Virus record (IMG/VR): IMGVR_UViG_3300029305_003293
Span: 54,161 to 118,160 of that record
Strand: one strand, 5' to 3'
Length of the DNA stretch: 64,000 nt
From: a virus
Taxonomy: Duplodnaviria; Heunggongvirae; Uroviricota; Caudoviricetes
Positions 1 through 64,000 of the stretch are shown here, piece after piece. The notes below the pieces were generated by a model. That model was not told the DNA's origin and did not search any database. It worked only from the letters and a program-made list of their open reading frames with translations. Each line of letters opens with the position of its first letter. Position 1 is the stretch's first letter. A program made the position numbers and the translations under genes.

Positions 1-548
1 TTTTCATTTCCTTCATCATCATTAGTCTTATGATATTCTTTTAGAATACCTTGACCAAAACAATCGCCTTTAGAAATCTTTACTGGGAAAGGAAGCATAT
101 TAATTAACTGAAAATAAATATGACCCTCATTGTCTGGATTGTTATAATAATCACTATCAATGACGCCAATACTATTTCCGAGAATGAGCCAATGCTTCAG
201 CGGAGTGGAACTTCTTACACTAAGTTCGAGATAATAACCATCAGGAATTTTACATTTAATACCTGTTGGGATAAGCGGGATTTTCGCATTGGCTTCTTTA
301 ACAATCGCGGCAACAGTATTTAGATCAAATGGAAAAGCCTTAGAAACTTCTTCCATATTACCAAACTTCTTTGCTGTCGTCGCGGCAAGACGATCAATCA
401 TTTCATCGCCCATTGCCGGTTCAAGTACCACATCTTCGGCGGCATAAAAATCATAACCAGCAGAGTTTGCAGTTTTACGAAATGGAACAATTATATCTTT
501 ATCATCAGCATATTTACTAATTTTTTCAAAACAAGCATCAATAGTCAT
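1..548 (-). CDS. dut: dUTP diphosphatase, partial; continues beyond the left edge of the window
   Basis: Reverse-strand translation from the ATG at 546-548: MTIDACFEKISKYADDKDIIVPFRKTANSAGYDFYAAEDVVLEP...IPTGIKCKIPDGYYLELSVRSS...GVIDSDY. These match conserved dUTPase motifs. There is no stop before position 1. Confidence 0.7.
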   Translation of the reverse strand, partial: MTIDACFEKISKYADDKDIIVPFRKTANSAGYDFYAAEDVVLEPAMGDEMIDRLAATTAKKFGNMEEVSKAFPFDLNTVAAIVKEANAKIPLIPTGIKCKIPDGYYLELSVRSSTPLKHWLILGNSIGVIDSDYYNNPDNEGHIYFQLINMLPFPVKISKGDCFGQGILKEYHKTNDDEGNE

Positions 549-768
549 AAGATACCTTCACACCACTGTTGGGTTCTTTCTCAAGATTAATAATCTTCTT
601 AGCTTTTACAACAACATATTCTTCTTCAGTTTTCTTATTAAACTTTACAGTATACTGAAAACTTTGAAGTTCATATTTACTGGACTGAGCCATCTCATCT
701 CGCATTTCAAGGGCTTCATCTTCGGTGTCCACGCGCCAAGTTTCTACGACATTCAAAAGATATTTCAT
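538..768 (-). CDS. hypothetical protein
   Basis: 76-aa ORF in the track, in the minus-strand gene series. Its TGA stop overlaps the dut start. Confidence 0.4.
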   Translation of the reverse strand: MKYLLNVVETWRVDTEDEALEMRDEMAQSSKYELQSFQYTVKFNKKTEEEYVVVKAKKIINLEKEPNSGVKVSYDY

Positions 769-771
769 CGC

Positions 772-1023
772 TTAAATTACCTCAATTTTTACTAATTCAT
801 TACTAGAAAACATTTCCATTAGCAGAGTATTCAAATCAAATTCAACAGATGTTAGATTTTCATCTTCGACTTTAAGAGTGTCAATATCATAATTATATAC
901 TACTGTTGCGACAGATTTCATATATTCATCGACACTATTACCAGTATATAAGTCTAGAATAGTTTCATCTTCTAAAATGATTTTTGGATTTGCCGTAAAA
1001 TTATGCAGCCAGAATGCGGTCAT
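772..1023 (-). CDS. hypothetical protein
   Basis: 83-aa ORF, tightly packed with its neighbours. Confidence 0.4.
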   Translation of the reverse strand: MTAFWLHNFTANPKIILEDETILDLYTGNSVDEYMKSVATVVYNYDIDTLKVEDENLTSVEFDLNTLLMEMFSSNELVKIEVI

Positions 1024-1496
1024 ACACGCACAACTCCTTTACCATAAGGGAATAAATAATAACAATCAGGCAGGACTTCGTCATCCCAATTGGCCCAAAT
1101 AGCAATTGCACCATTGGTATCAACAGAAATATCAAAAATCTGACAAAAATCTTCTAAAATATCGAAGATTTTATCAACAAGTTCATAAAATGTGACACCC
1201 ATACGAGTGAAGTCAAATAAAGTATAATATCTCTGCTCATGGCAAAGAAGCATATAATAATTATCAATATTTTTTGTGATCCAATCCATAAGAACTTCTC
1301 TTGCTTTTTCAAGTTCTTCAGATCCATAAGGTTTCATATTGGCAATAAGTTGACGATTCATTTCATAAAGAGAAATTTTTGGGCCTTCACCATTTAAAAT
1401 TTCTTCTTTAATTTCTTCTGCGAGATTTGTATTATGTTCTACAAACTCTTCATATTCGTCAGCTTCCAAAAAAATGCCATTTTCAGTATGCTTCAT
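1020..1496 (-). CDS. hypothetical protein
   Basis: 158-aa ORF with 4-nt overlaps to its neighbours. It lies downstream of the promoter at 1522-1562. Confidence 0.4.
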   Translation of the reverse strand: MKHTENGIFLEADEYEEFVEHNTNLAEEIKEEILNGEGPKISLYEMNRQLIANMKPYGSEELEKAREVLMDWITKNIDNYYMLLCHEQRYYTLFDFTRMGVTFYELVDKIFDILEDFCQIFDISVDTNGAIAIWANWDDEVLPDCYYLFPYGKGVVRV

Positions 1497-1521
1497 TTTG
1501 GAAAACTCCTTTTACTCATTT

Positions 1522-1562
1522 CTTATACATATATTATAACAAAATTTTTATTGAATGTCAAT
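1522..1562 (-). promoter_or_regulatory. sigma70-type promoter (TTGACA-N17-TATAAT), repeated family
   Basis: Minus strand: TTGACATTCAATAAAAATTTTGTTATAATATATGTATAAG, upstream of the gene 1020-1496. Confidence 0.6.
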
Positions 1563-2027
1563 AATCCGTTGATTGCGGCTTCCACGCATTTTTAGGGTAA
1601 CATCTCTTTGCTCTTGAATGAAAGGACCATCAATTAAAGTATTAATATTTGCGAGAATATATTGCATATGAGAACTTTCTTGTTTAAGTAAATCTTCATA
1701 TAAGTATCCAGTCCAAATATAGATCTTTGTTTCAGGAGATTTTTCCTTGACCGTTCTAACCAAAAGAGTAGTTAAAAATAAATTTTCTGGACAAAGAGGT
1801 TCTCCACCCAAGATGCACAAGGAACGATTAATTCCTTGTGCATTGAGTTTTTCTATAATTTCTTCTAAAAGAGATGCTGGAAATTCTTTTCCGCCATTAA
1901 AATCCCAAGTTTCTGGATTATGGCATCCAGGGCAACGATGAGGGCAACCTTGAACATAAAATGAAACACACAAGCCATCTCCGGCCATTATATCGTTCCA
2001 TATTACATCAGCATATTGCATAATCAT
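1548..2027 (-). CDS. nrdG: anaerobic ribonucleotide reductase activating protein (radical SAM)
   Basis: CPHRCPGCHNPETW cysteine cluster. The gene is immediately downstream of nrdD. Confidence 0.85.
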   Translation of the reverse strand: MIMQYADVIWNDIMAGDGLCVSFYVQGCPHRCPGCHNPETWDFNGGKEFPASLLEEIIEKLNAQGINRSLCILGGEPLCPENLFLTTLLVRTVKEKSPETKIYIWTGYLYEDLLKQESSHMQYILANINTLIDGPFIQEQRDVTLKMRGSRNQRIIDIQ

Positions 2028-2032
2028 TCTCC

Positions 2033-4264
2033 TTAATATTTTGAATGTTTAACGCGCTCTATGGTTTCCGCTCTCTTGCCTTCATTAAATTTACGATAAT
2101 CAGTTGTTAAATAACCAGTTACGCGTCGTAGTTGTTCGATATTCCTAGAACCGCATTCAGGGCATTCGTCATTGAATTCACTTTGATACCCGCAATCGAG
2201 GCAGGTGTCGATCGGGAAGTTGAATGCAAGGTATGGGATATCGAGTTTCTGGAAGGCGTAATCAATGATTTGTTCGATTGCTTTTGTGTTCTGAACAAAA
2301 GTCGAATCCAATTCAACATAAGTAATGCAGCCTCCTGTTGGATATTTACAGAATGGAGCTTCAATTTCTAACTTTTCAAAAATACCAACTTTTTCCCAAA
2401 CTGGAACATGATGGCTATTAGTAATATAATCTCTATCTGTAATATTTGGTAAAATACCATGTTGTTTACGCAAGGCTTTAAGAGCAGTAGAGCACAATCC
2501 TTCTGCGGGCGTTGCATAACAAGAGAAGTTCAAATCATTGCGTTCACTTGCTTCTTTTGCATAAGCGTTGATACGCTGAACCACAGAAAGAGCAAAAGCA
2601 TGTGCTTTCTTACTATGAACATGATTTTCACCAAAAAGCGCTTGACACATTTCGGCCACACCGAGATATCCAATTGCTAAAGTATTATGACGGAGTGAAT
2701 TATAAACACTCTCAGCATATTTATCGGCATCGGCAATAGTACCATTCTGATACATAAAAGGTGCTGAAACTGCGGCTTGACAAATCATTGTGTCAAAGCG
2801 TTCAAGCAATCCTTGTTCGGCAAGCTTTAAGGTTGATTCGAATTCTTTCCAGAATCCTTCCAAATCAGGAACTTCTCTTTCCCCAAGACAGGTTCCATAC
2901 TTAATGCCGAGCTGTGGTAGAATAATGGTGACTGGGACATTGTTTCCACGGCCGACTCTTTGATAGCCCAATCCGTGTCTATCGAATCCAAGCATTGTGC
3001 GACATCCCATAGTGGAGAAGTAAGTATCTGGATTACTTGGGTCTTCGTGAGCTTGCGACCAGTCGCAGTTACAAAAATTGGGATAGATTCGTTTTGAGAG
3101 AGAAACTAAAGCATGTTGTTTGAGGTCATAGTTTCTATCTTCTGGATTAGCATTACATCCTTGTTTATATTGGAAAATTGAAATCGGGAAAATAGAAGTC
3201 TTATGATGCTTGCCGATTCCAGCCAAAGAAGCATTAAGCATTGCTTGAGATACCATACGACCTTCAATGGTTTCATCTCGCCCATAATTAATAGAAGTAA
3301 ATGGAACCTGAGAACCTGCTCTTGATTCAAGAGTATTTAAATTATGGTAAAGAGCTTCTGCTCCTTGTTTCAACTCTTTTTCAAGCATATAAATAGCATA
3401 ATCATATGCTCTACTATTTTTATGGAATCGTTTATCATCAATAGATGGCATTGTTTCAATTAAATTCTTTTCTAAATCTTCTGTTCCATAATGATTCCAA
3501 AGAGCATTATCAATTTCATCTTCTGTCATCCATAAAAGACCTTCGCAATAATGTTTATAAAAACTTCTTTTTACAAAAGGAGCTAAGTCGAAATCAATAT
3601 GGACTGTGCCAACGCCACCAAATTGAACTTGAGACTGGCATTGGAAAATAACTGCCATTTGCTGACAAGCAGTTGAGAAAGTAGAAGGTGGACGAATATC
3701 GCCATTACGAGTTGAAAATCCTTCTTTAAAAAGTTTCTCAAAATCAATATTTAAACAGTTGTGTTCACCAATAGGTGCTTTTTCAAGGTCGTGCTGATAA
3801 ATAAGCATACCTTTATGCGCATTAGCAACTTCTTCACTAAGAACATCTTCTAAGGCATAAATCTTTTGAATATCAGCAGATGCTTCTTTCTCTCGACCAG
3901 AGAAAGAGCGTTCATCTACATTAGCATTTTGATTTTGAACTGCAATAGCATCTAATCTGCGGCGCATCGCTTCCATAATGCGACTACGCTGTTCTCTAAT
4001 GCGAGAACGCCTATTTCTATATAAAATATATCTTTTTGCGGTAACTGGATCAACCGCCATTAATTCTTTTTCAACAAAATCTTGAATGCTTTCAACAGAC
4101 ATATCTTTATCTAATGCTCTAATCTTTTCAGCAATGTCTGTAGCATTCGGATGCAGAGGCTGAGTAGGACAATACTCTTCCTCCCAATAGGCTTTTGTAA
4201 TAGCCGTTTCAATCTTGGACTTGTCAAAAGGAACTTTGCGCCCGTCGCGCTTAATAATCATCAT
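2033..4264 (-). CDS. nrdD: anaerobic ribonucleoside-triphosphate reductase, class III
   Basis: 743-aa protein with a C-terminal glycyl-radical region (RVTGYLTTDYRKFNEGKRAE) and CxxC pairs. Confidence 0.9.
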   Translation of the reverse strand: MMIIKRDGRKVPFDKSKIETAITKAYWEEEYCPTQPLHPNATDIAEKIRALDKDMSVESIQDFVEKELMAVDPVTAKRYILYRNRRSRIREQRSRIMEAMRRRLDAIAVQNQNANVDERSFSGREKEASADIQKIYALEDVLSEEVANAHKGMLIYQHDLEKAPIGEHNCLNIDFEKLFKEGFSTRNGDIRPPSTFSTACQQMAVIFQCQSQVQFGGVGTVHIDFDLAPFVKRSFYKHYCEGLLWMTEDEIDNALWNHYGTEDLEKNLIETMPSIDDKRFHKNSRAYDYAIYMLEKELKQGAEALYHNLNTLESRAGSQVPFTSINYGRDETIEGRMVSQAMLNASLAGIGKHHKTSIFPISIFQYKQGCNANPEDRNYDLKQHALVSLSKRIYPNFCNCDWSQAHEDPSNPDTYFSTMGCRTMLGFDRHGLGYQRVGRGNNVPVTIILPQLGIKYGTCLGEREVPDLEGFWKEFESTLKLAEQGLLERFDTMICQAAVSAPFMYQNGTIADADKYAESVYNSLRHNTLAIGYLGVAEMCQALFGENHVHSKKAHAFALSVVQRINAYAKEASERNDLNFSCYATPAEGLCSTALKALRKQHGILPNITDRDYITNSHHVPVWEKVGIFEKLEIEAPFCKYPTGGCITYVELDSTFVQNTKAIEQIIDYAFQKLDIPYLAFNFPIDTCLDCGYQSEFNDECPECGSRNIEQLRRVTGYLTTDYRKFNEGKRAETIERVKHSKY

Positions 4265-4321
4265 ATTTAAAACCTCCTTTTAAGGGAACATCCAATATAC
4301 TTAACTACCAGTGGTATTCCC

Positions 4322-4897
4322 TTAATCGAGAACGGCCAAATTCTCTACAAATTCTTGTATATATCTTGTTGTATAATTTAAATCATCAAGATTATCATTA
4401 CTTACTTTTTTAAGATTTAAATAATCAATATCATCAAAATCTTCTAAATCTGCAAAATATCGACGGCAAATTTCCTTTACATCCGGATCGGTTTCTCTAG
4501 TTAATTGTCGCATCATTCGAATTTTATCATCAACATCAACATAAAAACCAATAACAGTTAATTCTGGATCAATTTTTGCACTTTCTAGAAAACAATCATA
4601 TCCCTCTGGATTAAAAACGCCAACATTGATACCTGGAAGAAGAGTTGTCTTATCGGTTCCATAATACCAATTATTAAAACAAACTGCTTCAAGCATATCA
4701 CCATTTAGAACTTTGGCGGCAAATTCTTCATTGGTAAGATAGTAATAATTTACACCTTCTTTTTCGCCCTCTCTCATAGGACGAGTAGTGCAAGAAACCA
4801 TCATATGCCATTCTGGATTGTTTCCTACCAATATTCGTGCTACTGTATCTTTTCCCGCTCCCGCTTTACCTAATAGAGCAATAATAATTTTCTGCAT
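4322..4897 (-). CDS. deoxynucleoside monophosphate kinase-like P-loop kinase
   Basis: Walker A GKAGAGKDTVA near the N-terminus; 191 aa. Confidence 0.55.
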   Translation of the reverse strand: MQKIIIALLGKAGAGKDTVARILVGNNPEWHMMVSCTTRPMREGEKEGVNYYYLTNEEFAAKVLNGDMLEAVCFNNWYYGTDKTTLLPGINVGVFNPEGYDCFLESAKIDPELTVIGFYVDVDDKIRMMRQLTRETDPDVKEICRRYFADLEDFDDIDYLNLKKVSNDNLDDLNYTTRYIQEFVENLAVLD

Positions 4898-4930
4898 ATA
4901 TTCTCCTAATAGGGGAGGTTTCCCTCCCCT

Positions 4931-7900
4931 TTAATCTTCAATCATTTCACCTTGCGCGCGTTCGTGCGCGAGCATCATAGTAGTTCCATTATGAATCTCT
5001 TGAATTTTATATAATTGATGACCTGGAACCGAAGCATACTTTTTAGGAATAAATTCATCGCCACGACGAATACCCATTACCATAATCATACTGCCTCTAT
5101 TGAACCAAGATTTTTCAACCACATGTTTTGCTCCATCTGCGCCTCGTTCAGAAATTTGCTTATCAAACATACTGAAATATTCATTTCTAAACTTTACAGT
5201 TGTTACACCTTCTGGGGTTAAAAGAGAAACGGAACTTTTGGTTTTATTCTTTGCAATACAAGTGCCAATAATCTTGTGAAGTCGATAAATTGGAATCTCA
5301 GAATTACCTCTTTTCCAAATCTTATCAACTATTGGCTCCTCTGGCAAATCAAAGAAATTACTAATACCATAACGAGTTCGATTAATATCTTTTAATTCAT
5401 GATCATGATAATAGAAACACATAACTTCCATTTCCCACGCAGACAGAGTTCCTTTACCATACTTTTCCCATTCAGCCTTAAAAATTTCTTTGTTAAGTTG
5501 ATACAAAGTTTCTTCTTGATGTTCTTTCATCCAACTGCGGACTTTATCCATTTGTTGCTGATATACCTTATCCCACATCTTTTGATTCATTGCATAATTT
5601 GCATCATAAATCTCAAGATGAATATCTGGATAATTATTATCAATAAAATTTACCGCTCTATCATCAAGAATATAATATCCATCATCAATCTTACATACAT
5701 TCTTAAGATAACGATTAAATTCAAAAGTTCTTTGCTCTAAATTTAAATGATTTGGCAGCAAGCCTCTTTGAATCAAGCCATTCATATTTTGAAGTGTAAT
5801 ACGCTTTTTCTTATCACAATTCTGCCAAAGATACTCAATCATAAGCTTCTTTCGATCATGTAATTTATCAAACGCGCCACTTTTAATCAAAGATACAACT
5901 GCTTGTTTATTCGGATTCACTTTTGTCATAAAATCATAGAAATTTTCATATGGACGATTGTCCAAGATAGATTCTACAACATCATCACCGACATTCAGAA
6001 GGCCTTTAAGACCAAACAGGATTTGATTTCCTTCCGCATCTGGTGCGAAACCAAATTCTGCTTTGTTAATATCCGGCAAACCAATTTTTATACCATTGCT
6101 TTGAATAGCGCCAAGAGCTTTTGCAATTTTACCATAATCAGTCGTTCCAGCGAGTTCTGGATCAACCGCGCCGCTATTAACGATCAAACATGCTGTATTC
6201 CAATATACTGGATTAAACTGAGTTGCAAGAATGATAGTTTGAATTCCAACAAAAGAATATGGGAGAGAATGGTTTAAACTAAATGCATAACCCAACTGCG
6301 GCGCTACTGCAACTTCCCAGATATAGTCAGCAAGTTTATTATCCATTACATCATAAACTTTTCTTTTGAGTTCTGGAATACGAGACATTTGCTTTTTCGC
6401 AACAATTTTACGAGCATCATTCGCTTCTGCAAGACTAAAGCTCGCGATTTCAGGATCCATAAGAATCTGCATCATCTGTTCCTGAATTGCACAACATCCA
6501 TAATAAGTATCACAATATTTATGCATTGCTTTAATCATAGATGAGGGAAGATGAGCATCTTGCATTTCTTTATCAAAAACTTTAATTCCTTGACTCTTAA
6601 TTCTCGCAAATCTATCTTGTTGAGACTCCTTACCTTTTTCAGACATAAGTCTCATCATAGCATTTGCCGCAGTCATTTCCAGAGGATTCTGCGGTTTCAC
6701 TTTCTTTGCAACCGCAAGGCCGACACCGCTATTGAACTGGAATACATCAAGAATATCTCCTGCAGCCAAATGTTCCCAAATAACAGGATTTGTAGTATCA
6801 ATATGCTCTGGATGAAGATATTTATTATAAAGATTTCTCAATCCAATATCTTCAATAACCTTATCTTTTACCATTAGATTCAAACAACTAATAATTTTAT
6901 CTGAAACTTCGGTTACAAGGAAATCATATTTTGTATCTCCTGCGGCCTCAGCCATATGAAGATCATAACAAGTAATCAAATCTCCAGAAGGAGTTCTCAT
7001 AATTGCAGCGGTATCATAAATATCATTGTTATACAAGATAACACCCGAAGCATGACAGCCACGCTGCTTTACAATTCCTTCAATGGCAAAGATAATATCA
7101 AGTAAACCTGGATATTTATCAACTTCTCTTTTGAATGCTGCGATTGGTTTTCTATCTTTTTCTTGATTTCCATATACAACTTCTTTAATACTCCACAAGA
7201 AACCGCGCTCTTGGGGAATCATAGAAGTAATATATTGAGCAATATCAACATCAATACCATCTGGATACATTTCAATTCCATCTGCATCAGTTTGTCTATA
7301 ACCGCGACAAGCAGTCAAAACAGCAGATTTAGAACCTTCAGTGCCGAAAGTTGCAACCTGAATCAATCCAAGCTCTCCGCGTTCTTCTCGAATACGCTGG
7401 AAAATTTCAGGCCTCTTGCTCGGCGCCAAGTCAATATCAATATCAGGAAGTTCAGCGCGTTCTTTATTTAAGAAACGCCACCACGGGAGTTCCCATTTAA
7501 TAGGATCCAACTGAGTAATGCCAAGTAAATAGTTGGACAAAAAACCAGTAGCAGAACCACGACCGGGTCCAACAATACTACCTGCATCCCAAAACATATC
7601 AATGTAATGCTTAAAGGTATTGAAATAAGCAAACAGACAAGTTCCGAGACGATTGCCAATATAAGCAATAACATCCGCTTCAATTTCAAGTCTTTCAAAA
7701 TATCTATCCTCTACAAGATGTTTATCTCGTAATGCTTCCATGCAACAATCAAGCCAATATTGCTCTTGCTCATTTCCTTGTTGATTGATTCTATTTAGAG
7801 TAGGATAATTTTCTGGAATACCCCATCCCAAAAAACCTTTTCTAATAGGGACTTCAACCATAGGAATTTGCTGAGGTTTCTCAAGAGAATACCATTCAAT

Positions 7901-8785
7901 TTTTTTTCGCATTTCCTCAGACATTTGCAATGTAATATCAATGGTATCCTCTTGAAAAGAATAGCGCAATAATTCGCGAACTTCTTCTTCATCCATTAAT
8001 CGCGCAAATTCATAAAAGCTATCAACTTCTCGATCTCCACCCTTAGAGTTCAAATAAGCTTTATGCGCAAAACGAGTTTCTTTGCTTAAATAATGAGAGT
8101 CAGTTGCCGCGATCATATGTATACGATACTTTACTGCATAATTCAATAAATACTGATTTATTAAAATCTGGTCTTTATTTAAAGATGGCGCGCACTCAAT
8201 GTAAAAATCATTTTCTCCGAATACATTTTTACAGAATATAATGAAATCTTCAATCTCAGCGCCAATCTCTTTGGTTCTTGGATCATGCATTTCTTTAGCA
8301 ATATGATATTCAATAATACGTTTAGACAATTCACCACCCATACATGCTGTGGTGCCCATGATATGACCCTTGTATCGAGACATAACTTCTGCAAGTTCAG
8401 ATTTCAGAGTTGGTACACGCTCCATACCTCTGTCGAAATAAGAGTTATACCAAGCTTTTGAACTCAATTCTCGCAAACCTTTATGACCAATCGCATCTTT
8501 TGCAATCAAGATAAAATGATAATAAGTCTGATTTTTATCTCTTGTATCAGTCAGATAAATTTCATTACCAAGAGCAATAGTGAAATCTGGATACTTTTCA
8601 CGAATCTTCTTTGCATACATATTCACTTCCATGTGCGCACTAAGTGCTTCATGATCTGTGATTGCAATACCAGAAAGACCTAACTGAATTGCTTTATCAA
8701 TTAGGTCTGTAGGTTTAATAATGCAGTCAAGAAGTCTTAGATTTGAATACATCGTATGATTATGACAATTAAAAAACATATTCAA
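4931..8785 (-). CDS. dnaE: DNA polymerase III alpha subunit (DnaE-like)
   Basis: 1284-aa protein with an N-terminal PHP domain (NCHNHTMYS...ITDHEAL) and polymerase-core motifs. Confidence 0.85.
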   Translation of the reverse strand: MNMFFNCHNHTMYSNLRLLDCIIKPTDLIDKAIQLGLSGIAITDHEALSAHMEVNMYAKKIREKYPDFTIALGNEIYLTDTRDKNQTYYHFILIAKDAIGHKGLRELSSKAWYNSYFDRGMERVPTLKSELAEVMSRYKGHIMGTTACMGGELSKRIIEYHIAKEMHDPRTKEIGAEIEDFIIFCKNVFGENDFYIECAPSLNKDQILINQYLLNYAVKYRIHMIAATDSHYLSKETRFAHKAYLNSKGGDREVDSFYEFARLMDEEEVRELLRYSFQEDTIDITLQMSEEMRKKIEWYSLEKPQQIPMVEVPIRKGFLGWGIPENYPTLNRINQQGNEQEQYWLDCCMEALRDKHLVEDRYFERLEIEADVIAYIGNRLGTCLFAYFNTFKHYIDMFWDAGSIVGPGRGSATGFLSNYLLGITQLDPIKWELPWWRFLNKERAELPDIDIDLAPSKRPEIFQRIREERGELGLIQVATFGTEGSKSAVLTACRGYRQTDADGIEMYPDGIDVDIAQYITSMIPQERGFLWSIKEVVYGNQEKDRKPIAAFKREVDKYPGLLDIIFAIEGIVKQRGCHASGVILYNNDIYDTAAIMRTPSGDLITCYDLHMAEAAGDTKYDFLVTEVSDKIISCLNLMVKDKVIEDIGLRNLYNKYLHPEHIDTTNPVIWEHLAAGDILDVFQFNSGVGLAVAKKVKPQNPLEMTAANAMMRLMSEKGKESQQDRFARIKSQGIKVFDKEMQDAHLPSSMIKAMHKYCDTYYGCCAIQEQMMQILMDPEIASFSLAEANDARKIVAKKQMSRIPELKRKVYDVMDNKLADYIWEVAVAPQLGYAFSLNHSLPYSFVGIQTIILATQFNPVYWNTACLIVNSGAVDPELAGTTDYGKIAKALGAIQSNGIKIGLPDINKAEFGFAPDAEGNQILFGLKGLLNVGDDVVESILDNRPYENFYDFMTKVNPNKQAVVSLIKSGAFDKLHDRKKLMIEYLWQNCDKKKRITLQNMNGLIQRGLLPNHLNLEQRTFEFNRYLKNVCKIDDGYYILDDRAVNFIDNNYPDIHLEIYDANYAMNQKMWDKVYQQQMDKVRSWMKEHQEETLYQLNKEIFKAEWEKYGKGTLSAWEMEVMCFYYHDHELKDINRTRYGISNFFDLPEEPIVDKIWKRGNSEIPIYRLHKIIGTCIAKNKTKSSVSLLTPEGVTTVKFRNEYFSMFDKQISERGADGAKHVVEKSWFNRGSMIMVMGIRRGDEFIPKKYASVPGHQLYKIQEIHNGTTMMLAHERAQGEMIED

Positions 8786-8804
8786 AAAACTCCCTACATT
8801 TATT

Positions 8805-8845
8805 CTATATATACATTATATCATATTTTTTATTTATTGTCAACT
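8805..8845 (-). promoter_or_regulatory. sigma70-type promoter, repeated family
   Basis: Minus strand: TTGACAATAAATAAAAAATATGATATAATGTATATATAG, upstream of dnaE. Confidence 0.6.
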
Positions 8846-9435
8846 AATGATGTTAAAATAGCAAATAAGTTTTGATATTTAAGAGGCACCCATTCCCACG
8901 AAGCACAAATAAAAACTTTATCGAATTTAATTTCATCAAGAATTCTTAAATCTGTAGTGTGGGTATATTTTAATTTTTCAGGAATTTTTTCTGGCATATA
9001 AGAATTAGGATTATGAATCCAAGTATATTTATACATATTTAAATCAAAATGTGCTTTGGCTGCCCAATTTGCCAATGAAATAGATTGTTCATCCAATGAT
9101 TCATCTGTAATATGATAGCCTAAATCGTGATGATGGTCAATATTATAAATATTATATTTTTTAGCATCAAGCATTTTCATAAATTTATATAGCTCATCGT
9201 GTGCGAGTCCCACATAACAATCATCTTTTGTAAGATTTTTTATTACTTCTTTAAGCGTGAAATATAAATCTGTAAAACGATTTAAATCACAATGAGCTTC
9301 AAATCCAGGCATAGTCATTTCAATTTGTTCCCAAATTTCTTTTGGCCCAAGAGGAGAATTTCCGTGGCATAAATTATTATATGCTTCAATAGTTGGTTGC
9401 ATAATCCAGTCAAAATCAATACTTAAAATATTCAA
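8830..9435 (-). CDS. hypothetical protein
   Basis: 201-aa ORF, His-rich (NIDHHHDLGYH). Confidence 0.35.
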   Translation of the reverse strand: MNILSIDFDWIMQPTIEAYNNLCHGNSPLGPKEIWEQIEMTMPGFEAHCDLNRFTDLYFTLKEVIKNLTKDDCYVGLAHDELYKFMKMLDAKKYNIYNIDHHHDLGYHITDESLDEQSISLANWAAKAHFDLNMYKYTWIHNPNSYMPEKIPEKLKYTHTTDLRILDEIKFDKVFICASWEWVPLKYQNLFAILTSLVDNK

Positions 9436-10130
9436 TTTAATAAAGTCTCCAATTCTTTTATTGTGATTGCTTGGTATCCATCACATTTTCTTTCTATACT
9501 CATAGAAGAAGTTACTTCAATCATTAAACCATCAGCTCCAACTGCTAAAGCTGCTTTAGCAAGAGGTAATACTAAATTTCTATCACCCGCGGCGTGACTT
9601 GGGTCTACAATAACCGGACAACCTGATGATAATTGTAAAACAGGAACCGCGGCTAAATCTAAAGTGAAACGGCTTGAATCTGAAAATGTTCTAATTCCTC
9701 GTTCACATAAAATTACCTTATCACTTTTAATATATTCTCTTGCCTTACAAGTTTCATAAACAGTATTTCCAAAACCCCTTTTTAAAAGAATCGGAAAATC
9801 AAAATGATTTAATTCTTGAAGCAAATCAAAATTTTGCATATTTCGAGCACCAATTTGAATCATTACTTCATTTTTATATTGCTCTAAATATTCTAAATGA
9901 TGATAACTTAAAGCTTCAATAGCACATAATTCTAAATTATTTTTACGCATTGCAGAAATTAAAATTTTCACGCCTTCTTCTCCAAGTCCTAAGAAAGAAT
10001 TTGGATCAGTGCGTGGTTTCCAGCATCCACCCCGCAAGACAATATTAGAATTTAATTCACTTAATTCTTTTGCTATTTGAAAAGTATCTTCAATAGTTTC
10101 TACTGTGCAAGGTCCAGCAATCATAATCAT
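9432..10130 (-). CDS. KdsA/AroG-family 3-deoxy-phosphoheptulonate or phospho-octulonate synthase-like protein
   Basis: IAGPCTVE, LCERGIRTF and VDPSHA motifs, typical of the DAHP/KDO8P synthase fold. Confidence 0.5.
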   Translation of the reverse strand: MIMIAGPCTVETIEDTFQIAKELSELNSNIVLRGGCWKPRTDPNSFLGLGEEGVKILISAMRKNNLELCAIEALSYHHLEYLEQYKNEVMIQIGARNMQNFDLLQELNHFDFPILLKRGFGNTVYETCKAREYIKSDKVILCERGIRTFSDSSRFTLDLAAVPVLQLSSGCPVIVDPSHAAGDRNLVLPLAKAALAVGADGLMIEVTSSMSIERKCDGYQAITIKELETLLN

Positions 10131-11290
10131 TTATGATAATTCCTCACTATAATAAGTTTTTTAGCGGCGCGAGTTGCCGCGGTATATAACCATCGAACAT
10201 GTTCTTCTTTGCTATCTCCTTTAAGATATTCTTCAAGAACTATTACTTTATCATATTCACTGCCTTGTGATTTATGACAAGTAATTGCATAAGCATAATC
10301 AAATTGATTCGGTTGGTAATATTTTGGAATACGCTTAAAATTATCTTTATTTATGGTAGGTTCATGCTCCATAAAAATCTTATAATCCATTTCCAACGCT
10401 AAAAAACTTTTCGCATTTTCATAATCCGGGGTGAAGTCGACAATAGGAGTAACCTCCATAAAAGGGTTGTCTTTAGTATATTTAATAGAATTAATTTTTC
10501 CGCTCAATCCATTTACAAGAGCATCGCCGGTTTCATTAATACATTCCCAATTATTTTTCAGACAAATAATTCGATCTCCTACCAAAGGATGCGGATCATC
10601 TGTATTCATTAAGACTTGTCTCATAAAAGAATTAATCGCGAAACGAGTATCATTTTTTCCAACTAAAATTTGATCTGCCCAAGCAAGGAATCCAGGTTGA
10701 AGCATTTCTTCTCTGTCTACAATCCGCACTTCATTTCCTCTCATTAATTGAAGAGGCTTCTGCGCACGGATATCCATAGTTAAACGAATAATTTCAGATT
10801 CTTCCTCTTGCCGCATAATTTCATCAAGAAAAATATGTGGATGATCTAATACCCCATGTGGTTCTGCCGCAACTGGAGGTAACTGTCCTGGATCTCCAAG
10901 TGCAAGAACATGAATTTTATGACTCAGAAGTAGTTCCCACATATGTTTCGGCAACATGGATACTTCATCAACTACAATAATTTTATAAGGAAACAATGGT
11001 CTAATTGGAATATGTTTAAAAGTTCCATCTTTTTTAGGAAAAGATTGATACAGTAGACGATGCGCAGTCATGGCATTAGGACATCCTTTTGTGCGAAGAA
11101 CCTGCGCCGCCTTACCAGTATATGCTATATATACAACTCTATCTTCTGGAATATTTAATGCACTAATAATAAATTGAACAAGTGTTGACTTACCTGTACC
11201 TGCTTTAAGCGTAGCCTGCGATACAAGTATAAGGTTCTTTATTCTTATATCGGGCTACTGCTGTTTTCAGACCATCTTCTTGATTTTTGG
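10127..11290 (-). CDS. RecD/Dda-like superfamily I DNA helicase with an apparent +1 frame discontinuity at about 11200
   Basis: The track ORF 10127-11071 carries VVDEVSM and the C-terminal motif TAATRAAKKLIIV. Upstream in the same frame: LKAGTGKSTLV...TAHRLL (Walker A). An N-terminal segment (ILTKNQEDGLKTAVARYKNKEPYTCIAGYA) lies in another frame behind an RBS (AAAAAGGAGG). Confidence 0.6.
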
Positions 11291-52814: not shown

Positions 52815-54121
52815 TAATAAGCAATTAACTCCTCTAACGCTCCATTTGCTAATAATCTAATGGTTCCTAATGGAATTACACTCGCATTATTAGTCTAAGT
52901 TCCATGTTCACCAGCATAACAAGAAATGCCGCCTGTAAATACAAACAATAAACGTTTTAATATTGGATCTATATATTTTTTATCGATCTCACCTGCAGCA
53001 ACCATTGCTAATAATAGTGAATCTAATGAACTTTCACTTAACCTGTGATTCATTTGATAAGCAGCATTTGTATATTCAATACGGTCTAACTCTTTATCAG
53101 TAAAAGCAACCTAAGTATTAATCGCGAATTTTTTATCTTTTTCGCCACCCATCATATAACTATCATACATGCGATGACAAGTCATGATATTACCCTTGTG
53201 ATCAATAACTGCAGAGCCAATTCCTGCTCCGCATCTTAATTCTGAACCAGTATAATCTAATACGCCAACAGAATCTTTCCACGAAAAAATAAAACGCTGT
53301 ATAATAGGATGACTATATTCAGGTAATTGAGTAATATCAATTTCTCTTAATTTTCTAATAAGTTTACCATAGTTAATACCATCCTATTTAGTATAATTAT
53401 ATGGTGTTACTAATGTTGGCTCTTGAGTTAAATGTAAATTAATATAATTATTATTATTAATTAACTTACGACATTTTTGTTGTAATATATCAAAAAACTA
53501 TAGCCATTTAAATAAATTATCATTCTCTAATAATTTTGGCCATCTATCGGCAGGCACAGTAGGTTTAGTGTGTAAACTCAAATAAAACTAATCACCAGAT
53601 AATGTTTTATTATTTTCGCAAGTATCCAAAATAGTCTAATAAATAATATCAGTAATGCCCTTATAACCTCTTGAGACATCAGTAATTTCAGCAGGGCCAT
53701 CCAATGAAAACTAGATTGTTAAATGAATAGGACGATCATGTAATTCACTATATTTTTTAAAATATTCTATATATGGTTTAATTCCTTTTTCATAACCCAA
53801 TAAACCATTAGTAGAAAACATAAATGTTTCTAAAAAAGGAAAAAATTCTAATAATGGTTCACAAAAAGTCGCAATTAAATCAGCATTTAAAGTTGGTTCA
53901 CCAGACCATAATGACAAACCTTTTATATTATATTTAGCTTCATTAAATTTTGTAATAATATTATTTTGAAAAGAACCATCAACAATACTGTTTCTAATTT
54001 CTTCATTGTATAAATGCATATTTGAAGGATTTTTATGAATAAAACAATATTCACAAGCTAAATTGCAACTACCCACAAACACACATTCTAAATGATCAAT
54101 CGTTTTTACTAAACTACGCAT
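52795..54121 (-). CDS. radical SAM enzyme with a SPASM-like domain; multiple in-frame TAG codons and an apparent 1-nt frame discontinuity near 53635
   Basis: CNLACEYCF (CxxxCxxC) in the track ORF 53711-54121. The downstream frame carries CGAGIGSAVIDHKGNIMTCHRM and GGISCYAGEHG Cys clusters. The TAA at 52795 overlaps the start of the next radical SAM gene. Confidence 0.5.
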
Positions 54122-54142: not shown

Positions 54143-54427
54143 TTATATACTATATAAACGTGAAATTAATTCTCCTCCACACTTTCTAAAACCGCTATAA
54201 CGAACGGAACCATTATTTCCTCCACAATGACTGCCATCGCCGCTACCTCGACTATTATGGCTTCGTACTGAACCATTGTGGCTTGTATAATTAGAGCTCC
54301 AATTAGAACCACAATGTGTATCTATCATATTTTGAGCATTAGTCTAAGCTGTAGTAAGCCATCTACCAACATCGCTCGCTTTGACTAAAGAACCTTGTGA
54401 ACCTGAAGTTAAATTCGTCCAAGCCAT
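54143..54427 (-). CDS. small Cys/Gly/Ser/Asn-rich protein, precursor-peptide-like (paralog 1), with an in-frame TAG
   Basis: RBS GGAGGAG plus ATG: MAWTNLTSGSQGSLVKASDVGRWLTTA-TAG-TNAQNMIDTHCGSNWSSNYTSHNGSVRSHNSRGSGDGSHCGGNNGSVRYSGFRKCGGELISRLYSI. Confidence 0.4.
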
Positions 54428-54738
54428 TGTACCATTTCTCCTCCACACTTATTATTAGTATAAACAGATCGATTGCTGCAATTGCTATTACCGCTACCTA
54501 CTCCATTATGACTACAATTACTGTGAGTGCCCGGTTTAGAAGTAGCATAAGATGAATTAGCAGCACTACCTATATTATTTAATTCTGTCAATAAAGCGGA
54601 TTTTAATAATGTACCTGCCGCTATAGAATTAGTCCAAGTATAAGTACTACCCGTTGTAATACGATAAGCAGATGCTATAGTATTTTTAATACTATTAACG
54701 TCAGCAGCTTGTACTTTCTAACCCTGTGTTAAAGCCAT
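54409..54738 (-). CDS. small Cys/Gly/Ser/Asn-rich protein, precursor-peptide-like (paralog 2), with an in-frame TAG at codon 7
   Basis: RBS AAGGTGGG plus an ATG at 54736-54738: MALTQG-TAG-KVQAADVNSIKNTIASAYRITTGSTYTWTNSIAAGTLLKSALLTELNNIGSAANSSYATSKPGTHSNCSHNGVGSGNSNCSNRSVYTNNKCGGEMVQWLGRI. Confidence 0.4.
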
Positions 54739-54847: not shown

Positions 54848-54890
54848 TCTTTAATTAAATTATATCATATTTTTTTTCTAAAGTCAAATG
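54848..54890 (-). promoter_or_regulatory. sigma70-type promoter upstream of the precursor-like/radical SAM gene cluster
   Basis: Minus strand: TTGACTTTAGAAAAAAAATATGATATAATTTAATTAAAG (TTGACT-N17-TATAAT). It lacks the ATATATGTAAGG extension of the other copies. Confidence 0.55.
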
Positions 54891-54987
54891 AATTTTTCTA
54901 AACCCATTTTTGAATTGACCGTGCCCGCGCCGAGCAACCAAATATTTCCTTTATACCAATATCATAGCATAATTTTTCTAGAAAGTC

Positions 54988-55025
54988 AAAAAAGGTGGGT
55001 TCATCACATTCATGATGAACCCACC
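54988..55025 (-). terminator. rho-independent terminator at the downstream end of the tRNA array
   Basis: Minus strand: GGTGGGTTCATCA-TGAATG-TGATGAACCCACC (13-bp stem) followed by TTTTTT; just after tRNA-Val. Confidence 0.6.
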
Positions 55026-55065
55026 TTAAAGGCCAAGAGCTTCGTAAGTTTTCTGGGCACTGAAC

Positions 55066-55589: not shown

Positions 55590-55661
55590 GACCGGAAAGG
55601 AGACTCGAACTCCTGAGTTCCACCTTGAGGGTAGCGTTCTAACCATCTGAACTATTCTGGT
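55590..55661 (-). pseudogene. atypical tRNA-like element (irregular anticodon arm, no CCA)
   Basis: Acceptor ACCAGAA/UUCCGGU with an A-C mismatch, D-arm GUUC...GAAC and T-arm AGGAG-UUCGAGU-CUCCU. The anticodon arm has either a 5-nt loop or the loop CCUCAAG (UCA or CAA). Confidence 0.35.
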
Positions 55662-56105: not shown

Positions 56106-56181
56106 TGGCTGGGGTGGTAGGGCTCGAACCTACATATGCACGGGTCAAAGCCGTGTGCCTTCACCATTTGGCGACACCCCA
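56106..56181 (-). tRNA. tRNA-Gln (anticodon UUG)
   Basis: Resembles E. coli tRNA-Gln: UGGGGUG...CACCCCA G CCA, loop CUUUGAC. Confidence 0.8.
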
Positions 56182-57459: not shown

Positions 57460-57942
57460 TTAACGATTATTTTTACCACCATAACTATCTGTTATAGCAT
57501 GGCAATTTGGGCAACGATATTCTAAATTACTTAATTCATTATTTGTTCTATCTCCATCCTTATAATGTAATTGTAGAGTAAGAATGTGTCCCATCCAATT
57601 TCCATCACATCCACATCCAGCACATTGATAAGGAATTAATTTATCTTTATCAATATATCGTCTTAATGTTATATTGGAGATATCTTTACCTTTTACGAAT
57701 AAAGTTTCAATAGAATATTTTTCTTCAAAATCTGGTTTATCTCGCCAATGCTATCCAGTAAAATGCGAAATATCAATTTCATATTCAGCAATTTTTTTTC
57801 TAAGTGTAGCTTGACTTCCGCCACCTTGTGCTCTTCCAGCTTTTCGCAATACTTCAGCCAGCGAATAACTCTCTGCACATAGTTCTTGCAACCAGTCTTT
57901 TGAATATTTTCGTAATGACATAATTATCACACTTCCTTTCAT
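57460..57942 (-). CDS. HNH homing-endonuclease-like protein with an in-frame TAG (57751-57753)
   Basis: RBS AAAGGAAG plus an ATG at 57942. The track ORF 57751-57942 continues through TAG into CAGCGCDGNWMGHILTLQLHYKDGDRTNNELSNLEYRCPNCH (HNH/zinc motif). Confidence 0.55.
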
Positions 57943-61161: not shown

Positions 61162-61866
61162 TTAACCCCACTGTTCTGCCATTGCTTTCGCAATTCCAGG
61201 AAAAGTTTTACTGCGAGCTTTCGCAGTTCGTGGATCACTCCATCTGATCGTCTTACCATTTTCATCATAAGCCGTATCAATAGAAGCATTTACTGAACGA
61301 CCATTTCCTGCAAGAGGGCCGCAATCAACAATTTCAGTTAGAACAAGAGGTTGAACTCCCTTCTCCCAAAGACAAGTTTTCTTGCGTGCTCTTTCGCCAA
61401 ACTCATATGGTTGAATCATTTGCGCTGGCTTTTGCGGCAGACCATATCGTTCTGCCAAATCAGGAAAATGTTCTTTCAGATAAGAACCGCTGATAATACA
61501 TACGGGATTTTCTACAACAACTTTATCGCAATCTGCCTCAAGAAATTGACAGAAAAATTCTATCGCTTCTCTTTGGCGTCCATCCGCACGCTTTGCTGCG
61601 AAATGTCTTGCGCCACTCACAGCTAAATGAGTGCAAGGTGGATGCGCAATAATCATATCCCAACGATCTTCGATCTTATGCTCTTGACCGTCCATTGTAA
61701 TAAAAGTGGTTTTACCATTTAATAGGGGTAGGACATCACCAAGAATGTGCCATTCTGGATGACCGCCACTACATTCCTAAATATCACAGGAGAAAGCTCG
61801 ATGTCCTTTTGCGCGAAACGCCTTACAGACTTCTTGACTTTCTTCACAAGCAATTAAAACATTCAT
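61162..61866 (-). CDS. DNA cytosine-5-methyltransferase-like protein with an in-frame TAG (61777-61779)
   Basis: RBS AGGAG plus ATG: MNVLIACEESQ...FSCDI-TAG-ECSGGHPEW... joined to the track ORF carrying AHPPCTHLAVSG (PC motif) and VVVENPV (ENV-like). Confidence 0.4.
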
Positions 61867-61943: not shown

Positions 61944-62036
61944 TGGCAGCCCCTCTGGGACTCGAACCCAGACTACCTCCTTCAGAGGGATATCACGGTT
62001 TTAGAGACCGGTGTTCTGCCATTGAACTAAGGGGCA
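61944..62036 (-). tRNA. amber suppressor tRNA (anticodon CUA, reads UAG), long-variable-arm type
   Basis: Acceptor UGCCCCU/AGGGGCU, discriminator G, CCA encoded. D-arm GUUC-AAUGGCA-GAAC. Anticodon stem CCGGU/ACCGU with loop CUCUAAA (U33, CUA, A37). 23-nt variable arm. T-arm CUGGG-UUCGAGU-CCCAG. U1, G73 and the CCGGU stem resemble tRNA-Gln. Confidence 0.75.
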
Positions 62037-62039: not shown

Positions 62040-62085
62040 CAACCTTATATAAATATTATATCAAAAAATTTTGAAAAAGTCAATT
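62040..62085 (-). promoter_or_regulatory. sigma70-type promoter, repeated family
   Basis: Minus strand: TTGACTTTTTCAAAATTTTTTGATATAATATTTATATAAGGT, upstream of the suppressor tRNA. Confidence 0.6.
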
Positions 62086-63070: not shown

Positions 63071-63071
63071 T

Positions 63072-63527
63072 TTACTCCTTATCAAGAAACTTCAACATGA
63101 TCCAACCTTCGGTAGTCTTAGCCCACCATTCACCTTCATTGTCCGCCGCGAGCTTAATTACAGTCATTACATGACCTTCACCAACGCGCTTGATCTGCCT
63201 ACCATTAGGCGCTTCGCGCACATTTACACGACGACTGTTGACAATATACTTTTCATTATCAACGAGTTCAGGCTCATATGGACTAAGCCAAAGGGCATAT
63301 ACCCAACCACCAACTTCTTCAGTCCGAATAGTTGAAGAATAAGCCCAATCACCTTCAAAATAATCAACTTCAATTGACTGTCCGAAAGACATATAACCAA
63401 GTCGATCATGCTTTGTAGAAGCAGTTTCTCTGATATTAACTTCATCAGCATAGCAATAATATGTATCAGCCTTCGCAGAAGAGAACAACATCATACAGGC
63501 TGCCAAAACCGCAATTACTTTCTTCAT
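63072..63527 (-). CDS. secreted protein with two SH3b-like repeats
   Basis: RBS AAGGAG plus ATG: MKKVIAVLAACMMLFSSAKA signal peptide; VNIRE...GWVY and VNVREAPNG...GWIML repeats. The track N-terminal extension overlaps a tRNA and is rejected. Confidence 0.45.
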   Translation of the reverse strand: MKKVIAVLAACMMLFSSAKADTYYCYADEVNIRETASTKHDRLGYMSFGQSIEVDYFEGDWAYSSTIRTEEVGGWVYALWLSPYEPELVDNEKYIVNSRRVNVREAPNGRQIKRVGEGHVMTVIKLAADNEGEWWAKTTEGWIMLKFLDKE

Positions 63528-63551
63528 ATTATTGCTCCTTTTGAATAATAA

Positions 63552-63628
63552 TGGTACCGGCGACAGGATTTGAACCCGCAAAATCTTGATCCTAAGTCAA
63601 GCGCCTATGCCAATTCGGCTACGCCGGC
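63552..63628 (-). tRNA. tRNA-Leu-like (anticodon UAG, reads CUA/CUG) with an atypical short variable loop
   Basis: GCCGGCG...CGCCGGU A CCA; Leu-like D-arm GCC-GAAUUGGCAUA-GGC; stem CUUGA/UCAAG with loop CUUAGGA. It has a class I variable loop (AUUUU), unlike the other Leu tRNAs here. Confidence 0.55.
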
Positions 63629-63773
63629 ACGATGCGGTCTGTGGCCTCAGATTCCGCTCGCTCAACACTTTCTTTGGTCCCTGACCTCGGGCGCCCGGTC
63701 ATCTACGGTAGGCGGTAGTTGTATCACCGGATGGAGAATTTTTAGTAAATCAGATTACCATCATCAACTTAGG

Positions 63774-63860
63774 TGGTGCGGACGATGGGACTTGAACCCA
63801 TACGGTATTACTACCACTAGCACCTCAAGCTAGCACCTATGCCAATTCGGTTACGACCGC
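63774..63860 (-). tRNA. tRNA-Leu (anticodon GAG), type II
   Basis: GCGGUCG...CGUCCGC A CCA; stem CUAGC/GCUAG with loop UUGAGGU; long variable arm; T-loop GGGTTCAAGTCCC. Confidence 0.75.
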
Positions 63861-63863
63861 ATA

Positions 63864-63949
63864 TGGTGGGTGAGGTTGGATTCGAACCAACTCAGCCAGT
63901 GGCGACGGATTTACAGTCCGTTCCGACTCTCCAACTTCGGCGCTCACCC
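63864..63949 (-). tRNA. tRNA-Tyr (anticodon GUA), type II
   Basis: GGGUGAG...CUCACCC A CCA; stem ACGGA/UCCGU with loop CUGUAAA; long variable arm; T-loop GGTTCGAATCC. Confidence 0.8.
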
Positions 63950-64000
63950 ATAAAAATCGCCACATAAGTGGCGGGCCATTGCTAACAAACAGTGCGAATG

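Follow-up and report, generated by a model that had tools for sequence, protein, structure and literature searches.

Distribution of reassigned TAG codons between the replication module and the accessory genes of an uncultured tailed phage

The stretch of DNA analyzed here, hereafter the window, comprises 64,000 nucleotides of an uncultured Caudoviricetes phage (IMG/VR record IMGVR_UViG_3300029305_003293, positions 54,161 to 118,160), in which some genes contain in-frame TAG codons and others, including those for replication, contain none. The analysis covers the window and ~20 kb of flanking sequence of the ~173-kb genome, the flanks being taken from the source contig that the window matches (JGI 3300031555 Ga0318466_10001365; 173,261 bp). 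Fragments from at least nine other samples confirm the sequence and are 100% identical to it, save for L276, in which 2 of 957 bases differ. Given this identity, a search for CAG/TAG polymorphism among the independent assemblies was uninformative. Genes were called with TAA and TGA as stops and TAG read through, open reading frames (ORFs) and starts being chosen by codon-usage score. This procedure yielded 85 genes in the window, every one of them on the minus strand, with transcription running from position 64,000 to position 1.

The early-type module (Table 1) was delineated by Pfam and PHROG family matches. Its genes for nucleotide metabolism encode dUTPase, NrdG, NrdD, guanylate kinase, deoxyribosyltransferase and phosphoesterases, and those for replication and repair encode DnaE, a RecD-like helicase, RecJ, primase, DnaB, ligase, GyrA, GyrB and RNase H. 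Further genes of the module specify DAHP synthase, AAA_24, an SPFH protein, polynucleotide kinase, RNA ligase, YqeY, RlaP, a DUF2828 protein and NADAR. A cluster of 23 tRNA genes, including one with the anticodon CUA and one with the anticodon UCA, occupies 55–64 kb. The window contains no terminase, structural or lysis genes, and the Pfam and PHROG scans gave no lysis-type family match for any of its genes. A nucleotide search of an annotated phage collection with the window returned no match, and the nearest DnaE in that collection, found by protein search, is that of phage phAss-1 (38.7% identity). IMG/VR, by contrast, contains many uncultured relatives with DnaE proteins 54–78% identical and contigs of up to ~200 kb.

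With the start of the ClpP-like gene corrected, 42 in-frame TAGs are found in 16 of the 85 genes, leaving 69 genes (14,541 codons) without TAG. The region 1–45.1 kb holds only 9 TAGs per 14,069 codons, and these fall in three genes, namely, 20528–21502 (6 TAGs), 29903–30313 (2) and 19198–20085 (1). The preliminary description of this DNA, made from the sequence alone, had stated that the DNA-metabolism genes of this region are essentially free of TAG. This is borne out for NrdD, DnaE, GyrA/GyrB and ligase, and also for RecJ, primase and DnaB. The TAG-free class corresponds to the module for replication and nucleotide metabolism, with RNA-repair-type genes in addition. The region 45.2–54.8 kb contains 31 TAGs per 2,947 codons. 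It is TAG-rich, as described earlier, but the count per gene ranges from 0 to 7 rather than from 2 to 6. In the tRNA region, the HNH and methyltransferase genes carry one TAG each, in agreement with the earlier claim that both need suppression. The gene at 20528–21502, previously described as spanin-like with 5 TAGs, is indeed TAG-bearing, although it has 6 of them. It encodes an N-terminal hydrophobic segment followed by a long coiled-coil-looking stretch, and all 6 TAGs precede the nuclease domain. The spanin identity is not supported, as the protein ends in a GIY-YIG nuclease domain.

The TAGs are clustered beyond chance. Random spreading of TAGs over glutamine-type codons predicts ~28 TAG-bearing genes versus the 16 observed, and the G statistic of 123.7 lies above all 20,000 permutations (p<5e-5), so that the uneven density anticipated in the preliminary description persists when TAGs are counted per gene after recoded calling. 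Terminators in the window are TAA (57) and TGA (27), and no gene needs TAG as a stop. The only TAG close to a gene end is the penultimate codon of 19198–20085, which reads TAG-ATG-TAA. Within genes, TAG positions lean weakly and not significantly towards the 5' end (Kolmogorov–Smirnov p=0.095), and the base following TAG does not differ from the base following CAA in the same genes (p=0.16). Alignments to profiles or homologues cross the TAG positions in the PhoH, family-2 glycosyltransferase, both radical S-adenosylmethionine (SAM), HNH, methyltransferase and ClpP-like genes and in 49110–50009, and in-frame stops in the homologues of relatives are nearly all TAG. The small single-TAG ORFs starting at 50016, 50629 and 54409 are weaker gene calls.

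Table 1. Features of the window in the direction of transcription (GC, fraction of G+C).
Feature	Position	Strand	Basis and remarks
Near-consensus sigma-70-type promoter of the suppressor tRNA, TTGACT-17-TG-TATAAT	62055..62083	-	11/12, extended -10; ends 18 nt upstream of the tRNA
Amber suppressor tRNA, anticodon CUA, 93 nt	61944..62036	-	ARAGORN; Rfam tRNA model, 52.3 bits
DNA methyltransferase, 1 TAG at codon 30, GC 0.43	61162..61866	-	PHROG 757, 3.5e-56
HNH endonuclease, 1 TAG at codon 57	57460..57921	-	PHROG 10822, 2.2e-40, residues 4-152
tRNA-Gln, anticodon UUG, ordinary	56106..56181	-	ARAGORN; aligned with CUA tRNAs
tRNA-like gene, anticodon UCA, opal-suppressor type	55590..55661	-	44.5 bits; atypical stems
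Strong intrinsic terminator, 16-bp stem	54992..55027	-	Closes the tRNA region ahead of the TAG-rich cassette
Two sigma-70-type promoters heading the TAG-rich cassette	54859..54989	-	54989-54961, 10/12; 54887-54859, 11/12 with TG
Small Ser/Asn/Cys-rich ORF, 1 TAG	54409..54738	-	Weak gene call, no family match
Radical SAM enzyme, CNLACEYC motif, 7 TAGs, GC 0.29	52796..54121	-	PapB family, 1.2e-12, far below cut-off
Radical SAM/SPASM enzyme, 6 TAGs, GC 0.24	51436..52815	-	PapB family, 1.2e-16; SPASM, 5.8e-5
Four small ORFs without assigned function, GC 0.18-0.30	50016..51431	-	ORF calls
Protein without assigned function, 4 TAGs	49110..50009	-	tblastn homologues in 8 loci align across TAGs
Family-2 glycosyltransferase, 5 TAGs	48110..49054	-	Profile match
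ClpP-like protease, 1 TAG near the N-terminus, GC 0.36	47480..48031	-	Alignment to homologue (L047)
PhoH-like ATPase, 2 TAGs within the PhoH domain	46641..47468	-	Profile match
Ser-rich protein, 2 TAGs	45217..46020	-	Between terminators 46063-46082 and 45186-45213
YqeY-like protein, free-standing, TAG-free	38651..39088	-	GatB/YqeY-type tRNA-binding domain; Pfam PF09424, 1e-20; PHROG 1460
136-aa protein, 2 TAGs	29903..30313	-	Downstream of a 12/12 promoter
Gene previously called spanin-like, 6 TAGs	20528..21502	-	C-terminal GIY-YIG nuclease domain, 6.5e-11
PHROG 6721 protein ending TAG-ATG-TAA	19198..20085	-	Works with either code
TAG-free early-type module	1..45150	-	Pfam/PHROG family matches; also holds three TAG-bearing genes

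TAG most likely encodes glutamine, since homologues align glutamine at TAG positions and the acceptor end of tRNA(CUA) resembles that of tRNA-Gln. At the TAG codon of the methyltransferase gene, 50 of 83 homologues have glutamine, and the TAG of the ClpP-like gene aligns to a glutamine of its L047 homologue. At 66 sites where relatives have TAG, the residue in the window is glutamine at 6-fold the background, followed by glutamate and lysine, and glutamine scores highest by BLOSUM whichever way the window and the TAG sites of relatives are compared. Serine, leucine and tyrosine, suggested by the long extra arm of tRNA(CUA), were ruled out, being 0.6–0.8-fold depleted opposite TAG. On these alignments we count both the recoding and the glutamine assignment as demonstrated at the sequence level. 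Proteomic confirmation of TAG as glutamine in crAss-like phages has been reported (PMC9523058).

The tRNA(CUA) of the window combines U1.U72 and G73 with a long extra arm, and its CCA is encoded. Related loci contain 47 CUA tRNAs, several of which have the acceptor end UGGGG...CCCCA-G typical of tRNA-Gln. The extra arm of ~24 nt has a conserved YCTGAAG core and compensatory stem changes in the window and in seven related loci (L035, L040, L050, L073, L086, L093 and L100). Such an arm is unusual for a tRNA-Gln-type molecule, and short-armed CUA tRNAs are also found in relatives. The term 'variable arm' is absent from the papers on recoded phages consulted here. The minimum-energy fold of tRNA(CUA) gave no cloverleaf and was uninformative. 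As the preliminary description held, the TAG-bearing genes must depend on this suppressor; standard-code gene calls fragment them. Of the 23 tRNAs, none but the suppressor is preceded by a strong dedicated promoter, and comparable ones precede only 3 of 36 suppressor tRNAs of relatives, so the feature is not family-wide. As a consensus match, the suppressor promoter of the window predicts early rather than delayed synthesis of the suppressor. The methyltransferase gene lies downstream of the suppressor tRNA with no promoter between them and appears to be co-transcribed with it. The Pfam and PHROG matches of the window genes include no release factor or synthetase that could form a code-change module, only the YqeY-like protein. 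Domains of the YqeY/GatB type are known elsewhere to bind tRNA-Gln, and by analogy it is possible that the phage YqeY-like protein helps to charge the suppressor tRNA.

Absence of TAG from a gene could reflect either its exclusion or simply the base composition of that gene. As a control we used TTG/(TTG+CTG), a leucine pair with the same first-position C/T difference as TAG versus CAG. In the TAG-using genes, TAG/(TAG+CAG) is 0.79 (42 TAG, 11 CAG) versus 0.82 for the leucine control. The TAG-free genes of the whole window have 0 TAG versus 206 CAG, where the control of 0.67 predicts ~138 TAGs. Even when only the ten TAG-free genes richest in AT are counted, 8 CAG and no TAG are found despite a control of 0.95, and composition alone therefore cannot explain the absence of TAG. 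The same split is found in relatives (loci L001–L105, matches of at least 35% identity). Their homologues of the TAG-free genes contain 20 TAG versus 2,721 CAG (0.7%; control 0.53), with 0 of 337 for DnaE and 0 of 945 for the DUF2828 protein, whereas their GIY-YIG homologues contain 21 TAG versus 6 CAG; HNH homologues at other loci are likewise TAG-bearing. By this codon-ratio measure, TAG is actively excluded from one set of genes and used near compositional expectation in the rest, the split being close to all-or-none. We infer that selection keeps TAG out of the TAG-free genes, since at the divergence of these relatives drift would have introduced it.

Signals for transcription were compared between the two sets of genes. 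Promoters are taken here as matches of at least 11/12 to the sigma-70/sigma-A consensus and do not represent expression measurements. Such matches number 18 for the coding strand and 1 for its complement, versus 1.9 expected, and nearly all of them are intergenic. Thirteen are located in the module at 1–45 kb, most ending 30–37 nt ahead of a start codon, and perfect matches precede the DnaE, helicase and GyrA genes. Shine-Dalgarno sites together with the sigma-A-type promoters suggest that the host is probably a Firmicute. Among upstream gaps, 16 of 24 have a host-type promoter in the case of TAG-free genes versus 1 of 8 in the case of TAG genes (Fisher p=0.013). Furthermore, three TAG genes begin 21–43 nt past a terminator hairpin with no promoter between, among them 20528–21502 (21 nt past terminator 21523–21551) and the glycosyltransferase gene (24 nt past terminator 49078–49103). 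The scarcity of promoters and the terminator-adjacent starts of TAG genes fit a non-early class. A shared non-sigma-70 motif upstream of the TAG genes was not seen by eye, no formal motif search having been made.

As to their products, the TAG genes of the window are accessory or selfish, including homing-endonuclease-type, methyltransferase, PhoH and ClpP-like genes and the radical-SAM/glycosyltransferase cassette. Just past the left end of the window, the same contig encodes a RuvC resolvase with 6 TAGs, another GIY-YIG endonuclease with 5 and a fibre-like protein with 2. On the opposite strand of this flank, reading through 3 TAGs gives a 463-aa lysin-like protein that unites standard-code calls with SpoIID and SH3_3 matches; relatives of this protein were sought in viral contigs with no match. 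Both the lysin-like and the fibre-like protein are encoded within 9 kb of contig adjoining the window. In two relatives, large proteins encoded beside the homologous block contain 4–21 TAGs, and two of them, of 1,044 aa (12 TAGs) and 732 aa (11 TAGs), match a tail-protein family; the TAG counts for tail proteins of relatives are 11–17. Judging from these predicted products, the family to which the relatives belong uses TAG in late genes, as published, whereas the TAG genes of the window may or may not be late ones.

The reading we favour, with a probability of about 0.65, is that the genome has two tiers and that purifying selection keeps TAG out of genes needed while the suppressor is absent or scarce. 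The first tier would be code-neutral. It would comprise the replication and nucleotide module behind consensus host-type promoters, in which TAG is neither sense nor stop and which unmodified host machinery could read. The second tier would depend on the suppressor, and in it TAG would serve as a normal codon for glutamine, roughly as often as composition predicts. To it would belong the accessory and selfish genes of the window and, outside it, the genes for RuvC, the lysin-like protein and tail proteins. Upon entry of the phage into a standard-code host, host polymerase and ribosomes would express the code-neutral module, and the tRNA array, suppressor included, would be transcribed as well. 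Host enzymes, possibly aided by the phage YqeY-like protein, would charge the suppressor with glutamine. The charged suppressor would then compete with release factor 1, allowing the remaining genes to be completed. Genes acting before that competition could not tolerate TAG, and the others would drift to compositional equilibrium. Any delay of the second tier would presumably correspond to the lag needed for the tRNA to accumulate and to outcompete release factor 1. Timing would thus be a consequence of the constraint, and a designed timer of late genes would not be required.

Several considerations weigh against this reading. Half of the TAGs (21) reside in a unit headed by the promoter TTGACT-17-TG-TATAAT (54887–54859), which follows the strong terminator, and this unit shares its strand with the early genes. 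Its host-type promoter indicates that the suppressor-dependent tier is not cleanly a late transcription class. The comparison of early and late promoter classes called for in the preliminary description gives a mixed picture, host-type promoters being commoner ahead of TAG-free genes but also heading the main TAG-rich unit. The TAG gene 29903–30313 is likewise downstream of a perfect 12/12 promoter. The earliness of the TAG-free set is itself deduced solely from promoter matches and gene functions. The leucine control presumes that mutation and selection act similarly on the first positions of the two codon pairs, and the contrast would be overstated if, as is possible, some of the relatives counted are standard-code phages. 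Finally, avoidance of TAG could track expression level or protein length instead of timing.

The last point leads to an alternative that we regard as possible but doubtful, and which partly overlaps with the two-tier reading, namely, that every TAG costs yield through competition with host release factor 1 and that TAG was removed from genes that are long, essential or strongly expressed, being tolerated in those that are dispensable or weakly expressed, irrespective of when they act. Consistent with this, the proteins of greatest length and conservation (DnaE, NrdD, gyrase) are TAG-free, the strongest codon-usage score belongs to the TAG-free SPFH gene, and the TAG genes of the window, selfish endonuclease-type genes among them, are sporadic in relatives. 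The host-type promoter of the TAG-rich cassette, similar to those of early genes, points in the same direction. However, tail proteins of more than 1,000 aa in relatives have 12–21 TAGs, although structural proteins are normally needed in bulk. A cost in yield also agrees poorly with a split that is all-or-none rather than graded, and with the absence of TAG from small, poorly conserved ORFs of the early module.

Another explanation is a designed switch, in which TAG is positively kept in late, lysis or modification genes and is unlocked by a delayed suppressor, guarding against premature lysis or modification. This is the temporal switch of the preliminary description and also the hypothesis of Borges et al., and we consider it unlikely. 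The TAG-free set is indeed an early-type module behind consensus promoters, late-type genes for lysin-like and tail proteins outside the window are TAG-bearing, the three promoterless genes behind terminators look doubly gated, and the pattern has been published for several recoded phage clades. On the other hand, none of the TAG genes in the window is recognisably lytic, and the suppressor has its own host-type promoter, with the methyltransferase seemingly on the same transcript. The preliminary description had set constitutive high suppressor expression from time zero against a switch, and by that measure the early synthesis predicted here weakens a strict timer. The permissive genes use TAG at the level of composition with no sign of positive selection, the TAGs are not significantly concentrated at the 5' ends, and a release-factor/synthetase module is missing from the family matches of the window.

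The division might also be one between core and cargo rather than between early and late. Amber codons and the unusual suppressor would then form a private translation channel that confines expression of selfish and accessory cargo, namely, the homing-endonuclease-type genes, the methyltransferase and the radical-SAM/glycosyltransferase cassette, to phage-holding cells, an idea to which we give little credence. If it is true, the long-armed tRNA-Gln(CUA) would represent a distinct, undescribed class of suppressor, perhaps served by the YqeY protein. An explanation by composition and horizontal transfer, in which TAG is merely the AT-rich synonym of CAG and piled up in a foreign island (48–54 kb) acquired from a recoded phage, is very improbable. 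The island is compositionally distinct (GC 0.18–0.29) and rare at the equivalent position among the 80 relatives sampled, TAG density tracks low G+C content at third codon positions (Spearman -0.48), and TAG-using genes have hardly any CAG. Nevertheless, TAG-free genes equally rich in AT retained CAG alone, and TAG genes outside the block, such as those for the methyltransferase and ClpP, have ordinary GC. Exclusion from core genes also persists at the divergence of the DnaE proteins of relatives, which drift alone would not preserve. As a sole cause, this explanation is largely refuted by the counts in relatives and by the test on the AT-richest genes. The view that there is no recoding, that TAG-containing ORFs are pseudogenes or mis-assemblies and that the CUA tRNA is incidental, has nothing specific in its favour beyond a few weak calls of small single-TAG ORFs and is refuted by ORFs of 300–460 codons in an AT-rich genome that lack TAA and TGA yet contain 5–7 TAGs, by homology continuing past the TAGs, by interruptions in relatives that are almost exclusively TAG, by the lack of TAG terminators and by matching sequences assembled independently from nine or more further samples.

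Both the phenomenon and the temporal hypothesis have already been published. Borges et al. (bioRxiv 10.1101/2021.08.26.457843) described recoded phages that keep early genes readable in the standard code and have the recoded stop in genes for structure and lysis, and proposed that recoding regulates the timing of lysis; clades with code 15 in that study are Lak, crAss-like, Garnet, Amethyst and the TAG-recoded members of Agate. The phage studied here resembles them in its phage-encoded tRNA(CUA), in TAG aligning to glutamine, in having in-frame stops in only some genes and in sparing replication genes while structural and lysis genes, here seen outside the window, are recoded. Its Shine-Dalgarno sites and sigma-A-type promoters also suggest a Firmicutes-type host, and ~173 kb is within the range of the large clades. 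Unlike in those phages, no release factor or synthetase is found among the family matches of the window, the window has accessory or selfish genes recoded instead of lysis genes, and the suppressor has a dedicated host-type promoter. In addition, the codon ratios obtained here point to early genes being kept clear of TAG and not to late ones being enriched in it. What the present analysis adds is the test of exclusion versus enrichment, the accessory nature of the TAG genes in the window and the suppressor's own host-type promoter.

Three other systems are comparable. The Mgcod tool (bioRxiv 10.1101/2022.06.29.495998) is based on phage genomes whose genetic code changes from block to block. 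As in the block-coded phages presented there, stretches compatible with the standard code alternate with amber-reassigned ones in the window; unlike in those blocks, the boundary here also runs gene by gene, with isolated TAG genes at 20.5, 29.9, 57.5 and 61.2 kb. For phAss-1, a human-gut phage of ~136 kb, in-frame TAG is reported in 41 ORFs (PMC10607447). TAG reassignment is common to both phages, and phAss-1 provides the best DnaE match in GenBank, yet the identity noted above marks it as a different lineage. Theta (hepatitis delta virus-like) ribozymes associate with suppressor tRNAs, and 4.5% of theta-associated tRNAs encode CCA (PMC10879173). Like those systems, the window has a phage suppressor tRNA inside the tRNA array of a recoded gut-type phage; unlike them, it has no hepatitis delta virus-like ribozyme match near tRNA(CUA) at either gathering or permissive thresholds, and the CCA is encoded.

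The window thus adds a clean and quantified example to the known cases of partial stop-codon recoding in phages. Comparison of TAG/CAG with a leucine pair separates two ideas that are usually merged, namely, exclusion by selection and use at the level of composition, and shifts attention from the recoding of late genes to what obliges early ones to stay code-neutral. The codon-ratio method is applicable to any recoded genome. Standard-code annotation breaks a quarter of the window into fragments, and so recognition of the code matters. The host-type promoter of the suppressor provides a concrete, testable prediction on when the change of code happens.

Some features of the TAG-rich region and of the tRNA array deserve separate mention. 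The terminator-bounded cassette (48110–54738, minus strand), with its ClpP-like neighbour, resembles a set for modification of peptides similar to ribosomally synthesized and post-translationally modified peptides, although the family scores are far below the cut-offs (for the SPASM match of 51436–52815, 23.5 bits versus a 27-bit cut-off). Its four small ORFs carry one TAG each in 50937–51431, 50629–50943 and 50016–50285 and none in 50286–50624. Homology of the ClpP-like protein (47480–48110, minus strand) requires an N-terminus upstream of any ATG in the same frame, and a strong ribosome-binding site with an ATG at 48096 stands in a different frame from the ORF. Translation could start there and involve a -1 shift at the heptamer A_AAT_TTA, or otherwise use a non-standard start codon. 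The UCA tRNA-like gene has a mismatch in the acceptor stem and does not encode CCA. No evidence of TGA recoding was obtained, as 27 genes terminate in TGA and none was seen to contain it in frame; ORF extensions past TGA are short, yet not clearly different from those past TAA. One relative (L031:1109–1181) has a tRNA with the anticodon UUA, of the ochre-suppressor type, though TAA is the main stop of the family. Two sub-threshold full-length RNA matches lie in the tRNA array on the minus strand, one to Y RNA-like YrlA (57296–57398; 32 bits, E 6e-4) and one to drum RNA (56960–57056; 36 bits versus a 43-bit cut-off).

The RecD-like helicase gene (10127–11301, minus strand) is peculiar in its 5' part. 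It has a TTG start at 11301 after a strong ribosome-binding site; TTG is also the start in the L005 relative, and ATG is used in the other aligned relatives. The Walker A motif (11200–11301, minus strand) is interrupted by a 7-nt insertion, TAAAGCA, giving GCT TAA AGC AGG TAC AGG TAA G, whereas in 13 of 14 aligned relatives it reads GYA-G[TVS]GKST without interruption. In the L005 helicase gene, 6 nt (TAAACC) are inserted at this position, producing an in-frame TAA. The insertion in the window is identical in three independent assemblies. Its omission restores the conserved protein, which in the window amounts to a jump from the alanine codon GCT past the stop to GCA. It may reflect a translational hop, a +1 frameshift or a disruption common to the window and L005. 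An in-frame 'MV-TGA-KQQ-TAG' at the helicase start was rejected as coding, the true N-terminus being in another frame. Elsewhere in the module, a perfect 12/12 promoter at 30786–30824 (minus strand) falls within the first codons of the called gene 30294–30824, whose true start is probably farther downstream. The protein encoded at 42359–43909 combines the labels DUF2828 and DUF7788. Finally, ~9 kb upstream of the right end of the window (L190:1–607), a formate/nitrite transporter-family protein, unusual for a phage, is encoded on the opposite strand.

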